Positions 9,103 through 55,360 of a stretch of DNA of 64,000 nucleotides are shown piece after piece. This DNA comes from Escherichia coli. GTDB taxonomy: Bacteria > Pseudomonadota > Gammaproteobacteria > Enterobacterales > Enterobacteriaceae. The stretch lies in assembly GCF_050920415.1 (NCBI RefSeq), contig NZ_CP169309.1. One strand, 5' to 3'. A model generated the notes under the pieces. The model saw nothing but the letters and a program-made list of their open reading frames with translations. It had not been told where the DNA came from and did no database searches. Position 1 is the stretch's first letter. Each line of letters starts with the position of its first letter. Position numbers and translations under genes: made by a program.

Positions 9103-11473
<2,371 letters not shown>

Positions 11474-24957: not shown

Positions 24958-27208
24958 ATGATGCGTCGTGTAAATATTTTTTGCTCATTTGCTCTACTTT
25001 TTGCCAGCCATAATAGCCTGGCGGTAACTTATCCATTACCTCCAGAGGGTAGCCGTTTAGTGGGACAGTCGCTTACTGTAACTGTTCCTGATCACAATAC
25101 CCAGCCGCTGGAGACTTTTGCCGCACAATACGGGCAAGGGTTAAGTAACATGCTGGAAGCGAATCCGGGGGCTGATGTCTTCTTACCGAAGTCTGGCTCG
25201 CAACTCACCATTCCGCAGCAACTGATTTTGCCCGCCACTGTTCGTAAAGGGATTGTGATTAACGTCGCTGAGATGCGTCTTTATTACTACCCGCCAGACA
25301 GTAATACTGTGGAAGTCTTTCCTATTGGTATCGGCCAGGCTGGGCGAGAAACCCCGCGTAACTGGGTGACTACCGTTGAACGTAAACAAGAAGCACCAAC
25401 CTGGACGCCAACGCCGAACACCCGGCGCGAATATGCGAAACGAGGGGAGAGTTTGCCCGCATTTGTTCCTGCGGGGCCTGATAATCCCATGGGGCTGTAC
25501 GCGATTTATATTGGCAGGCTATATGCCATCCACGGTACCAATGCCAATTTTGGTATTGGGCTCCGGGTAAGTCAGGGCTGTATTCGTCTGCGCAATGACG
25601 ATATCAAATATCTGTTTGATAATGTTCCTGTAGGTACTCGTGAACCGCCCCGGAAATCCTGGAGACTAAACTTCCTGAGAAAGAGGTAAACAGGATGACT
25701 AAAAATACTCGTTTTTCCCCCGAAGTCCGTCAACGCGCAGTTCGTATGGTTCTGGAAAGTCAGGGCGAATATGACTCACAATGGGCGGCAATTTGTTCCA
25801 TTGCTCCAAAGATTGGCTGTACGCCAGAGACTCTGCGTGTCTGGGTTCGCCAGCATGAGAGGGATACCGGGAGCGGTGATGGTGGGCTCACCACCGCTGA
25901 ACGTCAGCGTCTGAAAGAGCTGGAACGTGAAAATCGTGAACTGCGCCGCAGTAACGATATCCTTCGCCAGGCTTCCGCTTATTTTGCGAAGGCGGAGTTC
26001 GACCGCCTCTGGAAAAAATAATGCCACTGCTGGATAAGCTGCGTGAGCAGTACGGGGTCGGACCGGTATGCAGTGAACTGCATATTGCCCCGTCAACGTA
26101 TTACCATTGTCAGCAGCAGCGGCATCATCCTGATAAACGCAGTGCCCGTGCGCAGCGCGATGACTGGCTGAAGAGAGAGATACAGCGCGTATACGATGAA
26201 AATCATCAGGTGTACGGTGTGCGTAAAGTCTGGCGTCAGTTGTTACGGGAAGGAATCAGGGTGGCCAGATGTACAGTGGCGCGCCTCATGGCGGTTATGG
26301 GACTTGCCGGTGTTCTCCGGGGTAAAAAGGTCCGCACTACCGTCAGCCGGAAAACCGTTGCCACAGGTGACCGCGTAAACCGTCAGTTCGTGGCAGAACG
26401 TCCTGACCAGCTGTGGGTGGCTGATTTTACTTACGTCAGCACATGGCAGGGCTTCGTCTATGTGGCGTTCATCATTGATGTGTTTGCCGGATACATCGTG
26501 GGGTGGCGGGTCTCATCGTCTATGGAAACGACATTCGTGCTGGATGCGCTGGAGCAGGCGTTGTGGGCCCGTCGTCCGTCTGGCACCATCCATCACAGCG
26601 ATAAAGGCTCTCAGTATGTGTCACTGGCCTATACGGAGCGACTAAAAGAAGCAAAACTGCTGGCATCAACAGGGAGTACAGGCGACTCGTATGACAACGC
26701 GATGGCTGAGAGCATCAATGGTCTTTACAAAGCGGAGGTAATACACCGTAAGAGCTGGAAAAACCGTGCAGAAGTGGAACTGGCCACACTCACGTGGGTG
26801 GACTGGTATAACAATCGACGATTGCTGGGAAGGCTGGGCCATACTCCTCCGGCAGAAGCAGAAAAAGCTTATTATGCTTCCATCGGAAACAATGATCTGG
26901 CAGCCTGAGTTCACAGATAAAACACTCTCCAGGAAACCCGGGGCGGTTCAACTCGTGTACAAATTATTGATCAGCCAGTGAAATACACAACGGAACCGGA
27001 TGGATCAAAGTGGCTGGAAGTTCATGAGCCACTGTCGCGCAACCGTGCGGAATATGAGTCAGACCGAAAAGTGCCTTTGCCAGTAACGCCATCTTTGCGG
27101 ACGTTCATTAACGGGCAAGAAGTTGATGTGAATCGCGCAAATGCTGCATTGCAGCGCCGATCAGGAATGCCTGTGCAAATTAGTTCTGGTTCAAGACAGA
27201 TGTTTTAA
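24958..27208 (+). pseudogene. ldtA: L,D-transpeptidase LdtA (ErfK) interrupted by an IS element; 5' part 24958..25640, 3' part 26951..27208
   Basis: N-terminal ORF ends ...DNVPVGTR at the IS boundary; the reading frame resumes exactly after the IS as TRVQIIDQPVKYTTEPDGS...SGSRQMF. Confidence 0.9.
25641..26950 (+). mobile_element. IS3-family insertion sequence, IS629/IS1203-like, 1310 bp, with orfA 25695..26021 and orfB 26021..26908
   Basis: Terminal inverted repeats TGAACCGCCCCGG...CCGGGGCGGTTCA; orfA (108 aa, HTH) and orfB (295 aa, DDE transposase) overlap at an A-rich slippery region; flanked by direct repeat ACTCG. Confidence 0.92.
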
Positions 27209-46107: not shown

Positions 46108-46129
46108 AGAATTTGGCTCCTCTGACTGG
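46108..46129. repeat. 21-bp direct repeat of the 3' end of tRNA-Asn (distal att site of the islet)
   Basis: gaatttggctcctctgactgg is identical to 54382..54402 (3' end of asnT plus 5 bp). Confidence 0.85.
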
Positions 46130-46462
46130 GATCGCCGTAGCCATTAACAGGCTGATTGGTAAAGCTAAAAAAATTTGAGTTTGTCAAGACCACCAGAATG
46201 ACCACCATTTTAAAGTAACATTTGAAGTTTACTCAGTAGCACCTTTAGCTTCACTTACAATCAATTAACCTGTGAAGATAGCTGTACCTACAATCGCAAT
46301 AACTTATTACAGATCCGACGACAAACATCACCTGTTATCCACTCTGGCACTACCGTGCATGATAATCAATAAGTCGGGTGCTGGCTTGCAAGGCAATTGC
46401 GTTGTAATGTACCAAATCCCAGTTCGCCTTCACTCTAAAATGCCCCGACGTTTCGAACGCGT

Positions 46463-47341
46463 TTACGGTAAATAATGCGTGACAATCTGCAGGAACTCAT
46501 CCCGCATCTGGTTGTCGATTTTCGGATTCCATGCCACACCAATGTTCCATATGATCTGCTTTCCCCACAGAGTAATCAGCTTGACTCCTACAGGTAAAAA
46601 ATTCTCGACGCTGGCGGGTAGCAGCGCGAGACCATTCCCTCCGGCTATCAATGCTAGCAGGGAATGAATATCATTCGTCGCAGAGATTGGCTCAATGATG
46701 AGTTCATTATCCCGCAGGAACGCAGTCGTTTGCTCCGCCAGACAAGGGCTGACCGCTGGATCCATGCATAAAATCGGATAGATTGCCAGCGTACGCTGGA
46801 GATCGGTGGGATCAATATCGACGGCTACCGGGACAGCCAACACCAGATTTTCTTTATTTATTAAGCGAGAGGCCAATAATTCTGTTACCGGCATACGAAC
46901 AAAACCAGCATGCAGTTCACCTTCCATCAACATCCTAGCTTGTACGCTGGAGGCAATTTGGCTGATAACAACGTCGCAGTCGGGAAATTTCTGGCGAAAA
47001 GTGTTAATCCAAACTGGTGTGCTTTTAAACGAAGATATACCAAATCCGAGCACCAGTTTACCCGTACTCCCCTTTTGGATTTCTCTGGCGTAGGTTAAAA
47101 AATCGTGGTGGGATTTCAGCAACTCATAAGCTTTAGCAAACAACTGCCTGCCAACCATCGTCAACACTGCCCCGTGGCGACCACGCAGGAAAAGCTGCCC
47201 TCCGGTCTTCTGTTCGAGCATCTTGATCTGCTTTGAAAGCGCAGGTTGTGTCAGAAATAAAGCTTCTGCAGCTTTATTGTAGTTTCCCTTTTCCGCCAGT
47301 GTCACAAATGCACGCAGCAGCCTTATATCTATTCCTGACAT
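46463..47341 (-). CDS. LysR-family transcriptional regulator (islet-encoded, divergent from the operon)
   Basis: 292 aa, N-terminal HTH IRLLRAFVTLAEKGNYNKAAEALFLTQPALSKQIKMLE. Confidence 0.85.
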   Translation of the reverse strand: MSGIDIRLLRAFVTLAEKGNYNKAAEALFLTQPALSKQIKMLEQKTGGQLFLRGRHGAVLTMVGRQLFAKAYELLKSHHDFLTYAREIQKGSTGKLVLGFGISSFKSTPVWINTFRQKFPDCDVVISQIASSVQARMLMEGELHAGFVRMPVTELLASRLINKENLVLAVPVAVDIDPTDLQRTLAIYPILCMDPAVSPCLAEQTTAFLRDNELIIEPISATNDIHSLLALIAGGNGLALLPASVENFLPVGVKLITLWGKQIIWNIGVAWNPKIDNQMRDEFLQIVTHYLP

Positions 47342-47567
47342 TTATTGAATCCTGAAAAATTGGAATTATACAAATACTCGCAACAGATGACATGATGCGT
47401 AAAATGATTTACGCCGAGATCCCCTTGGTTTGTCAAACTCAGAAACGCCATACCTGCTGCTCTTGGTTCTATTTAACACTCACTAATGCGCAGGTTATTT
47501 ATAAAAATTGACCTCATAAATCATTCAAAAACATTAATTATATAAATACAATAAGGATTAAATATTT
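47342..47567. promoter_or_regulatory. Divergent promoter/operator region between the LysR gene and the isochorismatase-hypEF operon
   Basis: 226-bp AT-rich intergenic region between divergent starts; classic LysR arrangement; no specific site mapped. Confidence 0.5.
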
Positions 47568-48167
47568 ATGCCAAATATTGCCGTTCTCACTAATGACCTG
47601 CAGTATGAGTTTACCTACAAAATAACACGCTCTCCAGAAATTCTGGCGCAAAAACTCGTCCAGTTTAATCAGTTTCTCGATGGCATTCGCGCTCTGGATC
47701 AATCCATTATCCACCTGCAACTTATCAACGATCCTAATGACCCGGCGGTACAAAAGCGCTATCGCAACCGCGAAGCGGGCATTCCTGCACTAGCTGGTCG
47801 CCCGGAAAACCAGATTATCGATAAAGTATACCGCCCCACAGATCTGGTTGTAGTCAAGGGCAGAGACAGCGGTTTTTTTAATAACGATCTCGACGAAATC
47901 CTCCAGCAACTCGGGGTAAAAACCGTAATCGTTACCGGGTTGCAAACTCATGTTTGCGTGCAGACCACTGCAGCGGATGCCTTCTTTCGCGGCTATAACG
48001 TCTGGGTACCGGGCGACTGCGTGTTCGCTCCTTCGTCCGAAGATACAGAGCGTGCACTCGAGTGGCTTGCCAGCTATTGCGCAACTGTAGCACCTTCTGC
48101 GGAAATTTTATCAATATTGCAAAAACAGAACGATCTGCCTGAGCGCGGCGAAAGGGAAGCATCATGA
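47568..48167 (+). CDS. Isochorismatase-family cysteine hydrolase
   Basis: 199 aa; ...VTGLQTHVCVQTTAADAF... matches the catalytic Cys region of the isochorismatase/CSHase/nicotinamidase family. Confidence 0.75.
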   Translation: MPNIAVLTNDLQYEFTYKITRSPEILAQKLVQFNQFLDGIRALDQSIIHLQLINDPNDPAVQKRYRNREAGIPALAGRPENQIIDKVYRPTDLVVVKGRDSGFFNNDLDEILQQLGVKTVIVTGLQTHVCVQTTAADAFFRGYNVWVPGDCVFAPSSEDTERALEWLASYCATVAPSAEILSILQKQNDLPERGEREAS

Positions 48168-49195
48168 GCTTAACCCAGACGCTAAATCATGAAGAGGTCG
48201 TTGTACTGGATCATGGCACCGGGGCGAAATTAAGCCGCGAGTTGGTTGAAAAAATTGCTAGCATTCTCGGTGACACCTATCTGGGCGTGATGGAAGATAG
48301 CGCGGTGCTGGGGTTATCCACCAGGCGAATTGCCTTCACCACCGACTCCTTTGTTGCCACGCCGCTGATTTTCGGCAACGGTGATATTGGCAAAATCGCC
48401 GTATGCGGCACCGTTAACGATCTCGCTGTCAGTGGGGCTCGTCCCCTTTACATCACACTCAGTCTTATTATTGAGGAAGGTATGCCGATGGCTGATCTGG
48501 TCAGAATCATCGAGTCCGTACGTGAAACGGCTCGTGAGGCAGAGGTCAAGATTGTCGCTGGTGATACCAAGGTCGTAGGTAAAGGTGAAGCAGATCGGCT
48601 GTTTATCAATACTGCTGGCATCGGCGTGTTTGAACATCCGCCAGTCTCAGTTAAGAACGTGCGTCCGGGGCAGAAAATAATCCTGAGCGGATATATCGGC
48701 AATCACTCGATTCACCTGCTGTCGATGCGGGAAGGATTGGGGTTCGAGCGAAATATTCTTAGTGATTGCGCACCGCTGAACCACATTATTGACAAACTTA
48801 TCAGCAACATCCCTGAAGGCAAAATAGCGTCAATGCGAGACGTTACGCGCGGTGGGCTGTCCGCTGTTTTACACGAACATGCGCGCGCAACAAATTATCA
48901 GATTCATTTCGACCAGCCATCTTTGCCCATACAGCCGGAAACCGCCATGGCAGCTAATATGCTGGGTGTTGACGTCATTAATCTCGCTAATGAAGGTTGT
49001 TTGTGCCTGTTTGTTGAACCTGAGTATGCTCAGAAGGTACTACATTTGCTGCAGGAGCATCCTGTCGGCAAGCACGCGACAATTATCGGCGAGATCACCG
49101 CTGTCTCGGGTACTGAAGTCTATATGATTGAAGCTGATGGAACACACACAGAAGTCGAGGAATTATATGGCGCAGAATTACCCAGACTCTGTTGA
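48164..49195 (+). CDS. HypE-like protein (PurM superfamily; carbamoyl dehydratase / thiocyanate-forming type) with C-terminal Cys
   Basis: 343 aa; ...DTKVV.KG.ADRLFINTAG.G... and C-terminus ...ELPRLC resembling HypE PRIC; ATGA overlap with upstream gene. Confidence 0.8.
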   Translation: MSLTQTLNHEEVVVLDHGTGAKLSRELVEKIASILGDTYLGVMEDSAVLGLSTRRIAFTTDSFVATPLIFGNGDIGKIAVCGTVNDLAVSGARPLYITLSLIIEEGMPMADLVRIIESVRETAREAEVKIVAGDTKVVGKGEADRLFINTAGIGVFEHPPVSVKNVRPGQKIILSGYIGNHSIHLLSMREGLGFERNILSDCAPLNHIIDKLISNIPEGKIASMRDVTRGGLSAVLHEHARATNYQIHFDQPSLPIQPETAMAANMLGVDVINLANEGCLCLFVEPEYAQKVLHLLQEHPVGKHATIIGEITAVSGTEVYMIEADGTHTEVEELYGAELPRLC

Positions 49196-51545
49196 GCTTC
49201 ACGAGACGCCGGAAACCCGGCGTTACCGCATCTGTGGGGTCGTTCAGGGCGTTGGATTTCGTCCCTTTGTTCACCGACTGGCCCGCACCTATGGTGCCAC
49301 CGGCTGGGTGTTAAACGATTCAGAAGGCGTGTTGCTTGAGCTGCAGGCATCCGGCACGGTTATTGCCAGAATCATGGACAAACTGGTGACCGAGGCACCA
49401 CCACTGGCAAAAATCATCAGTACGCAGGAAGTTAGCCCAACGGATACCAGAGCGCACTATGAAACGTTCAGCATCCGTAAAAGCCGCGATCATACCAGCA
49501 TGGACACGATTATCCCGCCAGATACCAACGTCTGCAGCGATTGCCTGCGCGAGATAAGCGATCCTGATAATCATCGTTATCGTTACGCTTTCACCAATTG
49601 CACCAATTGTGGGCCGCGCTATTCCATTATTCTTGGTATGCCTTACGATCGTGCCCAGAGCACTATGCGTAAATTCCCTTTATGTCCAACCTGTGAGCGT
49701 GAATACAACGATATTGAGGATCGACGCTATCATGCCCAGCCCAATGCCTGCCCAGTTTGCGGCCCACAGTTGCAACTTACCGATCGACAGGGCACATCCG
49801 TTCACACAGATGATATTGTCAAATTTGCCATTACGAAACTAAAAGAAGGCGGAATTCTTGCAATAAAGAGCCTTGGTGGCTTTCATCTCGTGGCCGATGC
49901 TTGCAATGAGAATGCTGTCAATGAACTTCGGCAACGCAAGCGAAGAGACGCCAAACCTTTTGCAGTGATGGTCGCGGATGTGGAAAGCGCGTCGCGTATT
50001 GCTTTCATCCCCCCCTGTAATCACAAATTGCTGGAAAGCCCGCAGCGTCCCATTGTCTTGTTGTATAAGCGCAACGTCCTGCTGGCGAGTACCGTTGCGC
50101 CACATAATCCGAACATCGGTGTAATGCTGCCTTCAACGCCGCTTCAGCATTTATTGCTGGAAGACCCGTCTCTGCCGATCCTGATTATGACCAGCGGTAA
50201 TATTTCCGGTCATCCGATCGTCTTTGACAACGACATGGCAATTAAGCAACTCGGGAAAATCGCGGATTACTTCATTCTGAATAATCGCGATATTCATACG
50301 CGTGTTGACGATTCGGTGGTCCGCACGGTGTTTCTCAACGACGCCATTACCTCGCAGCTATCGTTTTTGCGCCGCTCCCGCGGTTACGCGCCATACCCTA
50401 TTCATCTACCTTACGCAGTGGATTCCGTTATCGCGCTCGGGGCGGAGCTAAAAAACACGATCAGCATCGGCAAAGGAAAACAGGTTTTTCTGAGCCAGCA
50501 TATTGGCGATCTTAAGAATAACGTGACTTTTAAATCACATATCGAATGTATTGATCATCTTCAAAACCTGCTGAACGTGAAGGCAAATGTCGTGGCCTGC
50601 GATTTGCATCCCTCTTTCCGCTCTACCCGGCATGCGCTGGAGAATTTAGAGCATCAGGTTGTTCAGGTTCAACACCATCACGCGCATATGGCATCCTGCA
50701 TGGCGGAAAATGGCCTGTCAGGTACTACTCTAGGCGTAATTTTTGACGGTACAGGATATGGCACCGACGGCACCATTTGGGGCGGTGAGTTTCTCGTTGG
50801 TGATTTCGAAAAATTCGAGCGTGCAGGATGCTTGCGTTCAATGACCCTGCCCGGAGGCGATCGGGCAGTTAAAGAGCCGCTGCGCGTCGGCATCTCCTTA
50901 CTGGTGGAAACCTTCGGCGAAGATATCAGTACGCTCGCAGTACCAGGCTTGCAGGCGCTCCAGCCTCAGCAGCGCGATATATTCAGTAAAATGGCGACCA
51001 GAAAAATCAACACCACCACGACCAGCAGCATGGGCAGACTATTTGACGGCATCGCCGCGCTGATGGGCGTTTGCACTCAGGTGGAGTACGAAGCCCAGGC
51101 GGCCATTGAACTGGAAGCGCTGCTGCAGTGTAAACTTCATATGACGGCTCCGTTCAGCTACATCATTGCCGATGTCGAGAATAAGCTCGAGGTGGATTAT
51201 CGCCCGATGATAAGGGAACTGGTGCAATGCTTCAGCCAGCCCGGTTTTGATATGGCCGAACTAAGTCGGCGCTTTCACTCTACCATCGTCGACATGATTT
51301 GCGAGGTCTGTAAACGTCTGGTGGCACGCTCAGGCACGCAACAAATTGTCCTGAGCGGCGGCGTGTTCTGCAATGAATTCATCCTCGTTAATTCTCTTAA
51401 CAGTCTGGAGTCTTGTGGATTCCGGCCTTACAGCCATCAGTTAGTTCCGACTAACGATGGTGGTATTTCATTGGGGCAAGTGGTTATTGCTACCGCATAC
51501 ACTCGCGCAACGCGCAATAAAAATCTGGAGAGAGAAAATGCATAG
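49167..51545 (+). CDS. HypF-like carbamoyltransferase (acylphosphatase, two CxxC-N18-CxxC Zn fingers, YrdC-like and Kae1-like domains)
   Basis: ORF 49128..51545; start at ATG 49167 with GAGG RBS; VQGVGFRPFV acylphosphatase motif; CSDC...CTNCGPR and CPTC...CPVCGP fingers; HHHAH in the C-terminal domain. Confidence 0.82.
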   Translation: MAQNYPDSVELHETPETRRYRICGVVQGVGFRPFVHRLARTYGATGWVLNDSEGVLLELQASGTVIARIMDKLVTEAPPLAKIISTQEVSPTDTRAHYETFSIRKSRDHTSMDTIIPPDTNVCSDCLREISDPDNHRYRYAFTNCTNCGPRYSIILGMPYDRAQSTMRKFPLCPTCEREYNDIEDRRYHAQPNACPVCGPQLQLTDRQGTSVHTDDIVKFAITKLKEGGILAIKSLGGFHLVADACNENAVNELRQRKRRDAKPFAVMVADVESASRIAFIPPCNHKLLESPQRPIVLLYKRNVLLASTVAPHNPNIGVMLPSTPLQHLLLEDPSLPILIMTSGNISGHPIVFDNDMAIKQLGKIADYFILNNRDIHTRVDDSVVRTVFLNDAITSQLSFLRRSRGYAPYPIHLPYAVDSVIALGAELKNTISIGKGKQVFLSQHIGDLKNNVTFKSHIECIDHLQNLLNVKANVVACDLHPSFRSTRHALENLEHQVVQVQHHHAHMASCMAENGLSGTTLGVIFDGTGYGTDGTIWGGEFLVGDFEKFERAGCLRSMTLPGGDRAVKEPLRVGISLLVETFGEDISTLAVPGLQALQPQQRDIFSKMATRKINTTTTSSMGRLFDGIAALMGVCTQVEYEAQAAIELEALLQCKLHMTAPFSYIIADVENKLEVDYRPMIRELVQCFSQPGFDMAELSRRFHSTIVDMICEVCKRLVARSGTQQIVLSGGVFCNEFILVNSLNSLESCGFRPYSHQLVPTNDGGISLGQVVIATAYTRATRNKNLERENA

Positions 51546-52278
51546 TTCTGCGAACCGTATTGCCGCTGTTTTATTCGATATGGATGGTGTCCTTATTGAT
51601 TCCAATGCGGTGATTGAGCGCGGCTGGGCTGAAGGCGCACAGATGTTTGGCAAGACGCTAACGGAAGAGGATATCGTCAGGCATATTCACGGACAGCCCG
51701 GCCCGCATACCATTCGCGCCCTGTTCAGCGACCTTTCCCTGGAAGATCAAAAGAAGGTCCAGTCACATATCATCCACGTTGAAAATACCGCTGATTACGA
51801 CCCGATCCCTGGAGTTAGCGAACTTATCCAGGCGTTGCATAAGGCTGGCATCAGTGTGGGGATTGTCACTAGCGGCTGGCGGTCGAAAATCGATCGTATT
51901 ATGGAGATGCTGCAAATCACGCCCTGTATTTCAGTGATTGTCGAACGTGATGATGTCGTGCGCGGCAAGCCTTATCCCGATCCTTATCTGCTTGCCGCAG
52001 AGCGGTTTCATCTTGCACCGTCCAGAACACTGGTCTTTGAGGATTCAAGAAGCGGCGTAACATCTGCTGTTACAGCAGGCGCAATTTGTGTTGGCATCGG
52101 TACAGACAGTCTGAAAGAGTGCGGTGCCGTGCTTGCAATTACAGATTTTCGTAATGTGAAAATCACCTCACAGACAGGCGAAAAAGTAGTGATTGCCTTT
52201 ACTCCAGAGCACCAGATGGAGATGGAAACTCAGAGCTCTCGTAAGAAAACATCCTGTACCACAAGAGAAGAGTGCTAA
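51538..52278 (+). CDS. HAD-superfamily hydrolase (subfamily IA, phosphatase/beta-phosphoglucomutase-like)
   Basis: ORF 51457..52278; start at MHSSANRIAAVLFDMDGVLIDS (DxDG motif), overlapping the hypF-like stop. Confidence 0.75.
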   Translation: MHSSANRIAAVLFDMDGVLIDSNAVIERGWAEGAQMFGKTLTEEDIVRHIHGQPGPHTIRALFSDLSLEDQKKVQSHIIHVENTADYDPIPGVSELIQALHKAGISVGIVTSGWRSKIDRIMEMLQITPCISVIVERDDVVRGKPYPDPYLLAAERFHLAPSRTLVFEDSRSGVTSAVTAGAICVGIGTDSLKECGAVLAITDFRNVKITSQTGEKVVIAFTPEHQMEMETQSSRKKTSCTTREEC

Positions 52279-53471
52279 TGAATATCACACAGAAGGGACG
52301 CTGGGCTGTCACTATGCTATTTTTTATCAATGGCTTCGTCACCGGAGGTTGGGCTGTGCAAATTGCACAGCTTGTACCACGCTTTGGCGTGACCGACAAA
52401 GTGATCGGCCATTTAATTCTGATCTTCGGATTCGGTGCACTAACCATGATGCCCATATCAGGCATTCTGATGGAAAAGATGGGGACACAAATCGTAACGC
52501 GTATTTTTGCCCTTGCAGCCTCCCTGGCATTAATTCCGGTTGGTTTAGCCACCACCCCATTAGTGTTGATGCCAGCGTTATTTGTTCTTGGTGCGATGAT
52601 TGGTGCCATGAATGTAGCGATGAACTCGAATGCCGTGGCGGTGGAGAGATCACTCTCACAAGCGATTTTATCCTCCTGCCATTGCTTCTGGAGTATCGGC
52701 CTATTTGCGGCGGGCTCGATAGGCGGCCATCTTGTTGAACAATTTGGCTTTTTGACGCATATCTTTTTGATTAGTGCCGTGGCCTTAATACTGACGCTGA
52801 TTATCGCTCCGGCCATTTTTAAAGACATACAGACGGTTAAATCCACCAGCAGACAGACCACCCGGTTGCCTCGTTCTCCGGCGATTTATCTGATTGGATT
52901 GATGGCTTTTCTGGCCATGATCCCTGAATGCGCTGTTGTTGACTGGTCGTCACGCTATTTGATTAAAAATCTCAATGCAAAAACAGAAATCGCCAGCCTT
53001 GCCTTCGCCTGCTTTGCTGTAGCAATGGCCTTGTTTCGCTTTATGGGTGACGTGATCCGCAACCGCTTCGGCGCAATATTAATTATACGAATCTCCAGCT
53101 TACTGGCAGGCGCTAGCCTATTGTTGAGCGCACTGGCACACAATCCCTGGCAGGCGATCTGCGCATTTACCTTAGCGGGAATCGGCATCGCCAACCTTGT
53201 GCCCATTGTCTTTTCCGCAGCGGGAAATCAGCCCAATATTTCCACCAACACAGGAATGAGCATTGCCACAACCATTGGGTATTTAGGCACGCTAATGGCC
53301 CCTGCGCCTATTGGCTATATTGCGGAAATAACCGGTTTTCCAGTGGTTTATTGCGGACTAGCTTTCATGTCGGGAATTATCTTTTTGCTGGCACCACTGG
53401 TTCGGGGGGCAGAAATCTCTGTACAGCGGCAGCGAGCCTCAAACAAACACCAGAATACCGGAGCGTTGTAA
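52272..53471 (+). CDS. MFS transporter
   Basis: 399 aa, about 12 predicted TM segments; start overlaps the HAD stop (GTG 52272 or ATG 52278). Confidence 0.75.
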   Translation: MLMNITQKGRWAVTMLFFINGFVTGGWAVQIAQLVPRFGVTDKVIGHLILIFGFGALTMMPISGILMEKMGTQIVTRIFALAASLALIPVGLATTPLVLMPALFVLGAMIGAMNVAMNSNAVAVERSLSQAILSSCHCFWSIGLFAAGSIGGHLVEQFGFLTHIFLISAVALILTLIIAPAIFKDIQTVKSTSRQTTRLPRSPAIYLIGLMAFLAMIPECAVVDWSSRYLIKNLNAKTEIASLAFACFAVAMALFRFMGDVIRNRFGAILIIRISSLLAGASLLLSALAHNPWQAICAFTLAGIGIANLVPIVFSAAGNQPNISTNTGMSIATTIGYLGTLMAPAPIGYIAEITGFPVVYCGLAFMSGIIFLLAPLVRGAEISVQRQRASNKHQNTGAL

Positions 53472-54027
53472 TTTCTGCCTGGCAAATACTGTGAAACGCT
53501 GACGCAAATTTTACTTTCCTGCGTATTGTCATCACAGGCCGTACAGACAGTGCGCGGTCTGTTGGCGGATCTGCCTGGTATTTTGCCGATGAACTGAGGG
53601 CGTCCTGCGGGATACGTATCGCCAGGGGCGTGAAACTAATTGATGAGGTGGCGGCATGATGCCGGCGGACTAGCATATCTGCCTTTCGCCGCCTGACATG
53701 TCCTTTGGGGCCGCTGTCAGTTCAGAGTAAAGGAGAAAAAGATCGATACCGAGGGGGGGCACGACGCCCCGGAGACACCCCTGTTTCGTCAGACAGTCTG
53801 TACCGCGTACAGCCTGAAACTCCCTAAACCTCAACAAACTGCCACTTCGACGTGAAGGTATCGTTCTGGCGCAGCCAAAAAGCACATGCCGGAGACTGTT
53901 TTTTTGGTTGTAGAGGGTAGTCATGAGCAAATTAAGTAGTGAAATGAAGGCCCTGACGAAGAAAGCAGGCGGCAGCTTCAAAACGGTAAATGACCGTATC
54001 CATATTACAAAACGGTTCAGTGAGCAT

Positions 54028-54225
54028 TTACGCGAACTGAACATCCAGATCCGGCGGGTATGCGCCAAGACTGACTCTGGATTCTTTTCCGTTGAAACGA
54101 TATTTGAGATACCAGATGCGTGAACCGCCCGGATTGACGAGCAGATACAGACCGTGAGAGTCGGAGAGTTTTACCGGACGGGAAGAGGTTTTTAACTTGC
54201 GGATTTTAGAATCGTTTAAAGACAT
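54028..54225 (-). pseudogene. P4-type tyrosine integrase, N-terminal remnant only
   Basis: MSLNDSKIRKLKTSSRPVKLSDSHGLYLLVNPGGSRIWYLKYRFNGKESRVSLGAYP matches the N-terminal arm-binding region of tRNA-associated island integrases, then terminates prematurely. Confidence 0.65.
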
Positions 54226-54386
54226 TTGGGGGTCACTCCAGAATCGAACCAAACTGACCCCAGATCTGACCACCAAATTATCCCGATGCGGAGAGAAAAC
54301 CAGATACGCACCGGGGAGGATTTTCACGCTAACTTACTGAACCGTAAACAAATAGAGATGTACAGATAAGCATGAAAACTTGAATT

Positions 54387-54462
54387 TGGCTCCTCTGACT
54401 GGACTCGAACCAGTGACATACGGATTAACAGTCCGCCGTTCTACCGACTGAACTACAGAGGA
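54387..54462 (-). tRNA. asnT: tRNA-Asn (GUU)
   Basis: 76 nt, identical tRNA-Asn sequence; sits between mtfA and the islet/yeeJ. Confidence 0.93.
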
Positions 54463-54562
54463 ATCGTGTGAACAGGGCGCATGTTACTTAGCGGTACCTT
54501 GTCTGTCAACACTAAATTTCATAAGTCATTTCAATTGGTTAATTAATCTGCAAAGTTGTTAA

Positions 54563-55360
54563 TTAATGAACATTCGTCGCCGAAAACGAGTCTGTATCAT
54601 TAGCGTGATGCAGTCTCTGCAAAGGATCTTGTTGATAAAATTGGCAGAAACGTTGCCACAATGAAGGGAAACGAGGAGCAAAAAGCTCAGGGGCGCTAAA
54701 GAAATATTCAGAAAGTACGGCAAAACACTCAGCAGGATCACTGGCAGCATAAGCATCGATGCTCGCCGCATTCTCACCGACTAATTCGATCTCTTCCTGA
54801 ATGTTGTTCATTGCGGCATGAAGATCGTGTTCCCAGCCAGCAACCTCACGCAACGGAATAAAGGGAACTCCGCTGGCGCGATCGCCGTTACGGGTGTCCA
54901 GCTTATGAGCGACTTCATGAATAATCAGGTTAAAACCAGAAGCATCAAACGAATCTTGTATATCCAACCAGTTCAAAACGATTGGCCCTTGCTGCCAGCT
55001 CTGACCTGACTGAACAATACGTTGGTTATGCACTAAACCGATATCGTCTTCCCACTCATCATCGACTACAAATGGCGCAGGGTAAATTAAGACTTCATGA
55101 AAACCATCCAGCCATTCTAGCCCTAACTCCAGAACGGGCAGGCAAAATAGAAGGGCTATCCGGCAGCTTCTTAATGAATCCAGCTCAAAGCCCTGTAAGG
55201 GAACAAGCCGTTTTTGCTGTAAAAAACGTTCGGCAAGAGTGACTAATTTGCTTTGTTCCTGTTCTGTCAGGCACGTTAAAAGGGGAATCGATAGTGCTTC
55301 CTGCCAGGGAAGGGCAGTTTGATGTGCTGATTCTTGTACTTTCCAGGGCCACTTAATCAT
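54563..55360 (-). CDS. mtfA: Mlc titration factor A (zinc-dependent peptidase-like)
   Basis: ORF 54563..55399; start at [14 protein letters not shown], 265 aa; HEVAH motif. Confidence 0.9.

Follow-up and report, generated by a model that had tools for sequence, protein, structure and literature searches.

The integrase remnant beside asnT in Escherichia coli: a very probable deletion scar in the integration module of an 8.3-kb islet

A stretch of Escherichia coli chromosome of 64 kb (hereafter the window), which extends from the his operon to hchA and includes four tRNA-Asn genes, contains the start of a P4-type integrase gene next to asnT. Between asnT and the MFS transporter gene that ends at 53471 lie 915 bp (53472-54386), which an initial annotation, made from the sequence alone, had described as the site of a decayed integrase gene in an immobilised islet, an old acquisition that was retained for its cargo. 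The locus thus raises the question of what this interval represents, how the greater part of the integrase gene was lost, and whether the islet is still able to move. Here we present an analysis of 53472-54386 and of its relatives in other genomes, according to which the interval is, with high confidence, a scar left by deletions in the module that served the integration and regulation of an 8.3-kb islet at asnT. The coordinates of all features are summarized in Table 1.

Boundaries of the islet at asnT

The target gene, asnT, is flanked by mtfA and yeeJ in the window. One copy of a 21-bp direct repeat, GAATTTGGCTCCTCTGACTGG, overlaps the 3' end of the tRNA gene and the other marks the yeeJ-side boundary of the islet; the repeat had been called intact in the initial annotation and is indeed perfect at both ends. 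Each copy includes a 17-bp asn attO core, TTGGCTCCTCTGACTGG, which is the reverse complement of the published attO CCAGTCAGAGGAGCCAA (PMC2801613 Table 1), the sequence given for HPI-type elements at asn tRNA genes (PMC2801613). The outer flanks, joined via one copy of the repeat, are contiguous in 2,667 of the 5,426 complete E. coli genomes, so that 46130-54402 constitutes an insertion of 8.3 kb into the 3' end of this tRNA gene. Regarding the features by which tRNA-integrated islands are recognized, the locus shows an insertion at a tRNA 3' end with a direct repeat that duplicates this end, a precise empty site in other genomes together with cargo that occurs in only 16 of the 5,426, and an integrase gene that adjoins the tRNA at the canonical spacing of 161 bp, although only 57 of its codons remain. 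An atypical base composition was not seen: the GC content of the islet (0.44-0.52) is close to that of the flanks, and was dropped as a marker of foreign origin.

The complete distance from the tRNA to the integrase start (54226-54386) equals the spacing in the HPI, and the part of it outside the repeat (54226-54381) has 95-98% identity to the DNA that precedes an intact integrase gene in each of approximately 470 genomes. At the other end of the islet, the first approximately 84 bp of the non-coding distal arm have matches of 88-92% in 30 other E. coli genomes; an ORF for an excisionase or recombination directionality factor (RDF) was not seen in this arm (46130-46462) in the ORF list, the ORFs of which do not exceed 67 aa there. 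Two further searches yielded candidates that were rejected. Regarding integrase arm-type repeats common to both att arms, only one 9-mer was obtained, which does not exceed the level found in shuffled sequences. A consensus scan of 53300-54600 for promoters and terminators returned one promoter-like site upstream of asnT and zero terminators, a result no better than that of shuffles.

Table 1. Features of the asnT islet and of the interval between its MFS gene and the tRNA gene (window coordinates)
Feature	Position	Strand	Remarks
Distal direct repeat, GAATTTGGCTCCTCTGACTGG	46109-46129		yeeJ-side islet boundary; identical to proximal copy
attO core, 17 bp, TTGGCTCCTCTGACTGG	46113-46129		inside distal repeat
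Non-coding distal arm of the islet	46130-46462		short ORFs only, up to 67 aa (ORF list)
Six-gene cargo	46463-53471	LysR gene minus, other five plus	RefSeq annotation of identical DNA and Pfam
Segment A	53472-53683	plus	runs on from MFS gene; 98% identical to post-MFS DNA of sister copy L002
Remnant of the 3' end of the 153-aa module gene	53484-53644		C-terminal, degenerate, two frames; tblastn E 2e-4
Ner-like HTH gene, first ~9 codons	ATG 53656; in-frame TAG 53671-53673		TAG is codon 6; alignment with L002, L003, L016
First deletion junction	53683-53684		~731 bp of asnV sister copy missing (BLAST, L002 8211 to 8943)
Segment B	53684-54059		upstream region and first 46 codons of second recombinase gene
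EFASI RNA motif, full-length	53738-53867	plus	Rfam RF02957; 55 nt upstream of int2 stub
int2 stub (second tyrosine-recombinase gene)	53923-54060	plus	46 of 294 codons; convergent to integrase
Segment C	54047-54386		integrase stub and spacer to tRNA
Main deletion junction	54051-54059		9-bp microhomology; CCAGCGGGT in both parental contexts, CCGGCGGGT in window
HPI/P4-type integrase stub	54225->54055	minus	57 of 420 codons; part of arm-binding domain only
Spacer, integrase start to proximal repeat	54226-54381	minus	in intact modules, the place of the int promoter and of the proximal att arm
Proximal direct repeat, GAATTTGGCTCCTCTGACTGG	54382-54402		overlaps asnT 3' end
attO core, proximal copy	54386-54402		overlaps asnT 3' end
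asnT, tRNA-Asn (GTT)	54387-54462	minus	ARAGORN and Rfam tRNA; integration target

Gene remnants and deletion junctions

In related loci the module next to the tRNA is intact. It consists, outward from the tRNA, of the attO core, the 161-bp spacer, the gene of a 420-aa IntB/P4-type integrase (minus strand), an AT-rich spacer of 1.1-1.4 kb, and the convergent gene of a 294-aa second tyrosine recombinase, int2 (plus strand), with the EFASI RNA motif in front of it; next come a small hypothetical gene, a Ner-like helix-turn-helix gene and a 153-aa gene. Matches to C4 antisense RNA, isrK and c4-a1b1 were located upstream of the latter. BLAST comparison with these loci splits 53472-54386 into three segments (A, B and C in Table 1). 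The initial annotation had found no long conserved ORF here, which is correct for ORFs, but the interval is not empty: apart from the integrase stub it holds the int2 stub, the EFASI motif and remnants of two further genes.

Regarding the integrase, the 57 codons estimated in the initial annotation proved to be the exact count. The translation of the stub, MSLNDSKIRKLKTSSRPVKLSDSHGLYLLVNPGGSRIWYLKYRFNGKESRVSLGAYP, is 98% identical to residues 1-57 of the intact 420-aa integrase of a related island, L003 (tblastn), and matches positions 1-52 of the 83 positions of Pfam Arm-DNA-bind_3 (PF13356, E 2e-13), i.e., the domain itself is truncated. The 57 codons are followed by eight unrelated codons (PDLDVQFA) and a stop at 54030-54028. 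The tblastn search with the full-length integrase that had been proposed for this locus detected the stub and no other integrase fragment at a meaningful E-value in the 64-kb window; the core-binding domain (PF22022) and the catalytic domain with its tyrosine (PF00589), the latter already reported missing, are absent from all six frames. Since the full-length query finds nothing further, these domains are missing outright rather than frameshifted. The intact 420-aa homologue displays the three-domain architecture of P4-type integrases in Pfam (Arm-DNA-bind_3, Phage_int_M, Phage_integrase), with 71% identity to HPI IntB at equal length and 49.8% identity to phage P4 Int over 98% of the length. 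Because the core-binding and catalytic domains are absent, 54225->54055 is a pseudogene fragment of the P4/IntB-type tyrosine integrase family and not a member gene. In the RefSeq annotation of identical DNA, both recombinase stubs are marked as partial pseudogenes.

The int2 stub matches positions 1-46 of the 91 positions of Pfam Phage_int_SAM_2 (E 5.5e-18) and is 93% identical to residues 1-46 of the intact 294-aa protein, which also carries Pfam Integrase_1; its frame continues through junction-derived codons to a stop at 54121-54123. An ORF of 132 aa on the minus strand (53670-54068), antisense to EFASI and int2, gave no family match and was treated as spurious. The intact Ner-like gene corresponds to Pfam HTH_35, and the TGG-to-TAG change in its remnant is common to the asnT islet and to a sister copy of the islet at asnV (L002). 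As the nonsense codon is shared, the Ner-like gene was probably already dead before the two copies separated.

To place the main junction, the window was compared with the two parental flanks as they stand in L002 and L003. The sequence CCAGCGGGT is still present at the junction in the scar lineages L005 and L006, and the single copy in the window reads CCGGCGGGT. A B/C junction with a single copy of the microhomology carries what appears to be the signature of a microhomology-mediated deletion. Compared with L002 and L003, 248 int2 codons, the spacer and 363 integrase codons are lost, amounting to approximately 2.9-3.2 kb (an estimate from these relatives, as the exact ancestral module is unsampled). 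A deficit of this size cannot be rescued by the correction of bases, in agreement with the earlier view of the integrase as dead. Tandem repeats were searched for in the AT-rich spacer, which is deleted here, and none were found. At the first junction, the approximately 731 bp that are missing relative to the asnV copy cover the rest of the Ner-like gene and the small hypothetical gene.

We infer that a RecA-independent deletion at CCAGCGGGT, by slippage or illegitimate recombination, removed the approximately 2.9-3.2 kb and fused int2 codon 46 to integrase codon 57, that is, the 5' ends of two convergent genes. A second deletion of approximately 0.73 kb would have taken the Ner-like gene, which already carried its nonsense codon. 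The notion of a single decayed gene is thus imprecise, and is better replaced by that of one microhomology deletion between two convergent recombinase genes, together with a second deletion. As one deletion of about 3 kb took both recombinase genes, the islet encodes no recombinase and is predicted to be unable to excise alone. The islet is an ordinary case of the fixation of a genomic island by loss of its recombinase genes, and illustrates that a single microhomology deletion between convergent genes can strip both recombinases while sparing the att sites and the cargo.

Distribution, related modules and mobility

Of the 5,426 complete E. coli genomes, 14 contain the entire 915-bp scar, in three haplotypes that have its junctions in common. 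It was also seen in all 24 draft contigs read that encode an identical MFS protein, where it always adjoins mtfA. The 16 complete genomes with the cargo comprise these 14 and two in which it is located at asnV (Z1323HEC0462 and NY1601), where it is 99.5% identical to the cargo of the asnT islet. Beyond the distal repeat of these copies follows the native flank of asnV, which indicates true site-specific integration into another asn tRNA gene. Both of their recombinase genes are full length but broken, int2 by a nonsense codon at position 245 and the integrase by a frameshift directly after the AAYVH motif, near the C-terminus. The same cargo at asnV, within the native flank and next to full-length but broken recombinase genes, shows that site-specific movement of the islet took place in the past and that inactivation was independent at asnT and asnV. 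A copy of this cargo with unblemished integrase and recombinase genes was not found. In a search for an intact-integrase version of the islet elsewhere, covering one genome per bacterial species, only the cargo cluster was recovered, in Citrobacter, Escherichia sp. and Lonsdalea (57-64% MFS identity), without an adjoining integrase module.

The islet haplotypes that share the scar differ by approximately 0.9%, and the flanking core genes by 0.9-2.8%. The strains were isolated in Asia and North America, their sources being human, pig, goat (one animal), dog (one animal) and food. Because a scar common to haplotypes of this divergence occurs in several hosts and countries, these data support the view that the deletion, and with it the acquisition, is probably not recent, as had been proposed. 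The islet is likely to have persisted by vertical descent and probably also by homologous recombination of its flanks.

Several known systems are instructive in comparison. The HPI at asnT has the same target gene, 17-bp attO core, 161-bp spacing and integrase length (420 aa) as the module described here. The E. coli HPI was fixed at asnT by a unique deletion, which affected the distal repeat, and spread via homologous recombination of the flanks (PMC2606025). Fixation of the islet is thus the mirror image of HPI fixation at this tRNA gene: the HPI kept its integrase and lost the distal repeat, whereas the islet kept both repeats and lost the integrase. Unlike the HPI, the islet measures 8.3 kb, carries a hypE/hypF-like cluster instead of yersiniabactin genes, and has a module with a second recombinase and EFASI. 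The genomic modules at asn tRNA genes of Enterobacter hormaechei and its EhGI1 are small, flanked by the 17-bp attO, and either integrase-less or equipped with a truncated intB2 (Paauw et al. 2010, PMC2801613); these elements were read as island remnants, and in some isolates intB shows an internal deletion (bp 124-470) (PMC2801613). They belong to a different species, carry other cargo and were described without mention of a second recombinase or of EFASI; co-excision with an integrative and conjugative element (ICE) was shown for them. ROD21-like (EARL) islands are 20-60 kb long, have an RDF gene close to their distal att site and in most cases include genes for pili, a relaxase and H-NS (PMC6035254). 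They resemble the islet in the Asn-tRNA site, the P4-like integrase beside the tRNA and the flanking direct repeats; however, the cargo of the islet consists of six metabolic and transport genes, with no RDF (by the ORF list), pilus, relaxase or H-NS genes. Phage P4 Int shares its three-domain architecture with the intact homologue of the stub, but the islet, which carries no P4 genes, is neither a phage nor a satellite.

The description of the islet as immobilised stands insofar as no recombinase is encoded, from which autonomous excision would be excluded; it goes too far insofar as both attO cores are intact and an intact integrase gene of the cognate type occurs in approximately 9% of E. 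coli genomes, so that excision in trans is conceivable. The islet could accordingly be non-autonomous yet mobilisable, with the cognate integrase, such as WP_033810926.1, or HPI IntB acting in trans on the two attO sites, so that the islet would move either by itself or together with an adjacent island, a reading that we consider unlikely. It would be consistent with the perfect repeats, whose core is identical to the HPI-ICE attO, with the retention of both att arms beside the cores, and with the occurrence of the islet at two different asn tRNA genes in different strains; in E. hormaechei, EhGI1 (truncated intB2) and the integrase-less EhGM3 were detected in circles with the HPI-ICE (PMC2801613), and HPI IntB, 71% identical to the intact homologue, is common. 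However, a second copy of the 5' region of the cognate integrase gene is found in none of the 14 scar genomes, the integrase-less modules of the precedent were seen only as composites with the ICE and never alone (PMC2801613), and an IntB with 71% identity may differ in arm-site specificity. The loss of self-excision through the main deletion is therefore retained as the reading of the scar, in an islet that is presumably non-autonomous.

Regarding the module as such, the integrase-proximal segment is found with an intact integrase gene in approximately 470 further genomes at 95-98% identity, and the EFASI/second-recombinase segment in 412 genomes. A recurrent integration module is identified at the four E. 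coli asn tRNA genes, and the EFASI RNA is placed inside it. Cargo other than that of the islet was seen in 2273-PO3, whose asnT module carries T6SS-associated genes, and in PCN033, with an Rhs toxin at asnW. The segment-B allele of the window differs by 8-10% from every other allele, whereas those show 96-97% identity among themselves; only scar genomes contain the window allele at 99% identity or more. Given this divergence, the exact parent module of the scar appears to be unsampled, and the modules seem to have recombined.

The scar might represent a relic of small "shuttle" islets at asn tRNA genes that form a family not yet described, whose module (C4/isrK-like antisense RNA region, 153-aa gene, Ner-like gene, EFASI, int2, AT-rich spacer and IntB-like integrase), present in approximately 8-9% of the complete E. 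coli genomes, would move interchangeable cargo (Rhs toxin, T6SS-associated or hypE/hypF-like) to asnT, asnV or asnW, and in which EFASI might act independently of recombination; we regard this wider proposal as decidedly doubtful.

EFASI, gradual decay and retention of the cargo

The EFASI motif lies between the two deletions and is the sole component of the module that was kept whole in the scar. It was detected with 90.1 bits (gathering score 51.2) over model positions 1-133 of 133, 10 bits below the copies in the comparison modules L002, L003 and L016 (100-103 bits), and with additional mismatched pairs. According to the Rfam description of RF02957, EFASI occurs immediately upstream of an integrase-family gene, and many, not all, copies are found downstream of STAXI. 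The window agrees with this family in the full-length motif upstream of an integrase-family gene, but the downstream gene is just a 46-codon stub, and STAXI was found neither at the gathering score in the window or in L002, L003 and L016, nor at E values up to 1 in window positions 53300-54600 or in L003 7300-8300. For a different strain of E. coli, RT-PCR has demonstrated the EFASI RNA (PMC12370729).

Divergence within the scar is patchy. Among the three scar haplotypes, segregating sites number 12 in the 212 bp of segment A, two in the 376 bp of segment B and 16 in the 327 bp of segment C, i.e., 0.5% in the EFASI/int2 segment and approximately 5% in the flanking remnants, a pattern for which a single simple history does not seem to account. 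The low polymorphism of segment B could reflect constraint on EFASI or recombination with other modules.

The remnant might thus have been kept for a function, with either the EFASI RNA or a 65-aa arm-binding peptide selected as a regulator independent of recombination. The full-length motif between two deletions and the few segregating sites of segment B compared with the adjacent remnants would fit this explanation, as would the integrase stub, in whose 57 codons four of the five nucleotide differences between scar lineages are synonymous. However, selection on the EFASI/int2 segment was not convincing when compared with the synonymous divergence of the cargo, Poisson estimates being P ~0.02-0.15 per pair with three haplotypes only. 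Furthermore, the window copy of EFASI has the lower score and the extra broken pairs, the integrase segment occurs without the EFASI segment in approximately 100 genomes, and the function of EFASI in general is unknown (Rfam text quoted in PMC12370729). The synonymous bias is equally explained by imported alleles, and is as expected if these alleles evolved while the gene was intact. Retention of the remnant for a function is considered very unlikely, and the EFASI motif is read here as part of the deletion scar.

Gradual mutational decay, in which the integrase was first inactivated by a point mutation and then eroded piecemeal, has some parallels at the locus. The neighbouring Ner-like gene gained its nonsense codon before it was deleted, and the asnV sister copies were inactivated by a frameshift and a nonsense codon, so an earlier point inactivation in the asnT lineage is possible. 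Against this, the retained 57 codons are nearly identical to the intact protein (98%), with no stop or frameshift, and a single clean microhomology junction explains all of the missing sequence; we judge such a decay to be most improbable and prefer the deletion between the two recombinase genes. A sequencing or assembly artefact, i.e., a collapsed or mis-called stretch that hides the full-length integrase which the initial annotation had allowed for, can practically be dismissed, because approximately 3 kb and not one base separate the present state from an intact gene, and because the identical junction recurs in the 14 independently finished genomes and in every one of the draft contigs.

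The cargo comprises a LysR regulator, an isochorismatase-family hydrolase, a HypE-like protein, a HypF-like carbamoyltransferase, a HAD hydrolase and an MFS transporter, and every one of these ORFs is intact. When the window is compared with two further lineages that carry the scar, 1.2-1.6% of the synonymous and 0.23-0.27% of the non-synonymous sites differ (pN/pS 0.14-0.22), as is characteristic of purifying selection. Intact ORFs and these ratios fit the earlier suggestion that the islet was retained for its cargo, and the islet probably persists because the six genes are maintained by selection. While the main value of the present analysis lies in the improved annotation of a single locus and the reconstruction of its history, the stand-alone hypE/hypF-like cargo under purifying selection is probably the more interesting object. 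Regarding individual strains, one strain with the scar, WL297, shows a further deletion, which extends into yeeJ and by which the distal repeat, the LysR and hydrolase genes and most of hypE were lost.

The intact integration modules and uneven divergence along the scar

Differences between the scar lineages are unevenly distributed. Across the integrase stub and spacer, comparison of the window with two other scar-bearing E. coli lineages (L005 and L006) gave a difference of 4.9%, versus 0.5% in the adjoining EFASI/int2 segment. Of the differences in the stub and spacer, nine occur in a single lineage only and are absent from both the sister islet copy at asnV (L002) and the comparison module copy L003. 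A probable explanation of the contrast is that the region around asnT recombined with a different allele of the island.

In intact copies of the module, the DNA immediately upstream of the 153-aa gene matches C4 antisense RNA, isrK and c4-a1b1, which are immunity RNAs of the phage P1/P7 type; the window lacks this portion. Within the AT-rich stretch separating the two convergent recombinase genes of L003, Tandem Repeats Finder reported nothing. Two mechanically listed ORFs there (9840-10073 and 10092-10997) give similar peptides, a resemblance between translations that hints at a degenerate internal repeat.

Features of the window and of the comparison loci (match regions include C4, isrK and c4-a1b1)
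Locus	Coordinates	Feature	Remark
Window	25695-26908	IS3-family element	
Window	25695-26021	OrfA-like ORF of the element	
Window	25976-26092	ALIL frameshift pseudoknot of the element	
Window	26021-26908	ORF of the element with rve transposase domains	Pfam
Window	48164-51545	HypE-like/HypF-like pair	
Window	54060-54386	Integrase stub and spacer	
L003	6431-6615	C4/isrK/c4-a1b1 match region	
L003	9125-10491	AT-rich stretch between convergent recombinase genes	1.1-1.4 kb in intact modules; no annotated gene
L016	15146-15234	C4/isrK/c4-a1b1 match region	
L004	4657-13925	PTS-sugar, rpe and hxlB module	asnV-islet strain
L009	13319-21194	Lambdoid prophage	scar-bearing draft genome
L012	4254-11347	Cargo relative	Citrobacter sp.
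L013		Cargo relative	
L014		Cargo relative	
L015	9915-10995	Cargo relative	
L017	1930-6257	Additional deletion	scar strain WL297

The cargo and its relatives in other genera

The cargo in the window includes a stand-alone HypE-like/HypF-like pair, located away from any hydrogenase genes and accompanied by an isochorismatase-family hydrolase, a HAD hydrolase and an MFS exporter. When hypF of the window is compared with its counterpart in another lineage (L005), six non-synonymous and no synonymous differences are seen.

Citrobacter sp. (L012) carries, immediately 3' of a tRNA-Asn, a six-gene cluster homologous to the cargo, with the same gene order and 58-81% amino-acid identity; this cluster has neither an integrase remnant nor a distal repeat. 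A second Citrobacter retains only a LysR/MFS fusion remnant, beside tRNA-Asn. In the Lonsdalea copy, hypE, hypF and the MFS gene match only as split alignments, which may represent frameshifts. The cluster may be native in these relatives and an asn-tRNA element may have picked it up; alternatively, it may be an older islet whose module has been lost entirely.

Variable segments, and an insertion element near asnV

In both strains with the islet at asnV, a PTS-sugar, rpe and hxlB module of approximately 9.3 kb separates ldtA from the native asnV flank; as it is located outside the att repeat, it is a separate variable segment. The scar strain WL297 has undergone an additional deletion and lacks the part of yeeJ that encodes the N-terminal region, along with the distal att repeat, the LysR and hydrolase genes and most of hypE. 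In one scar-bearing draft genome (L009), the DNA immediately beyond mtfA is not the serU-yodB-zinT region but a lambdoid prophage with genes for an integrase and for DicB-like, Cro-like and YdaT proteins.

An IS3-family element is located a few hundred bp from asnV in the window. The preceding L,D-transpeptidase (ldtA) ORF comprises 243 aa, versus approximately 308 aa annotated in NY1601, and because of this shorter length ldtA is probably truncated by the element.
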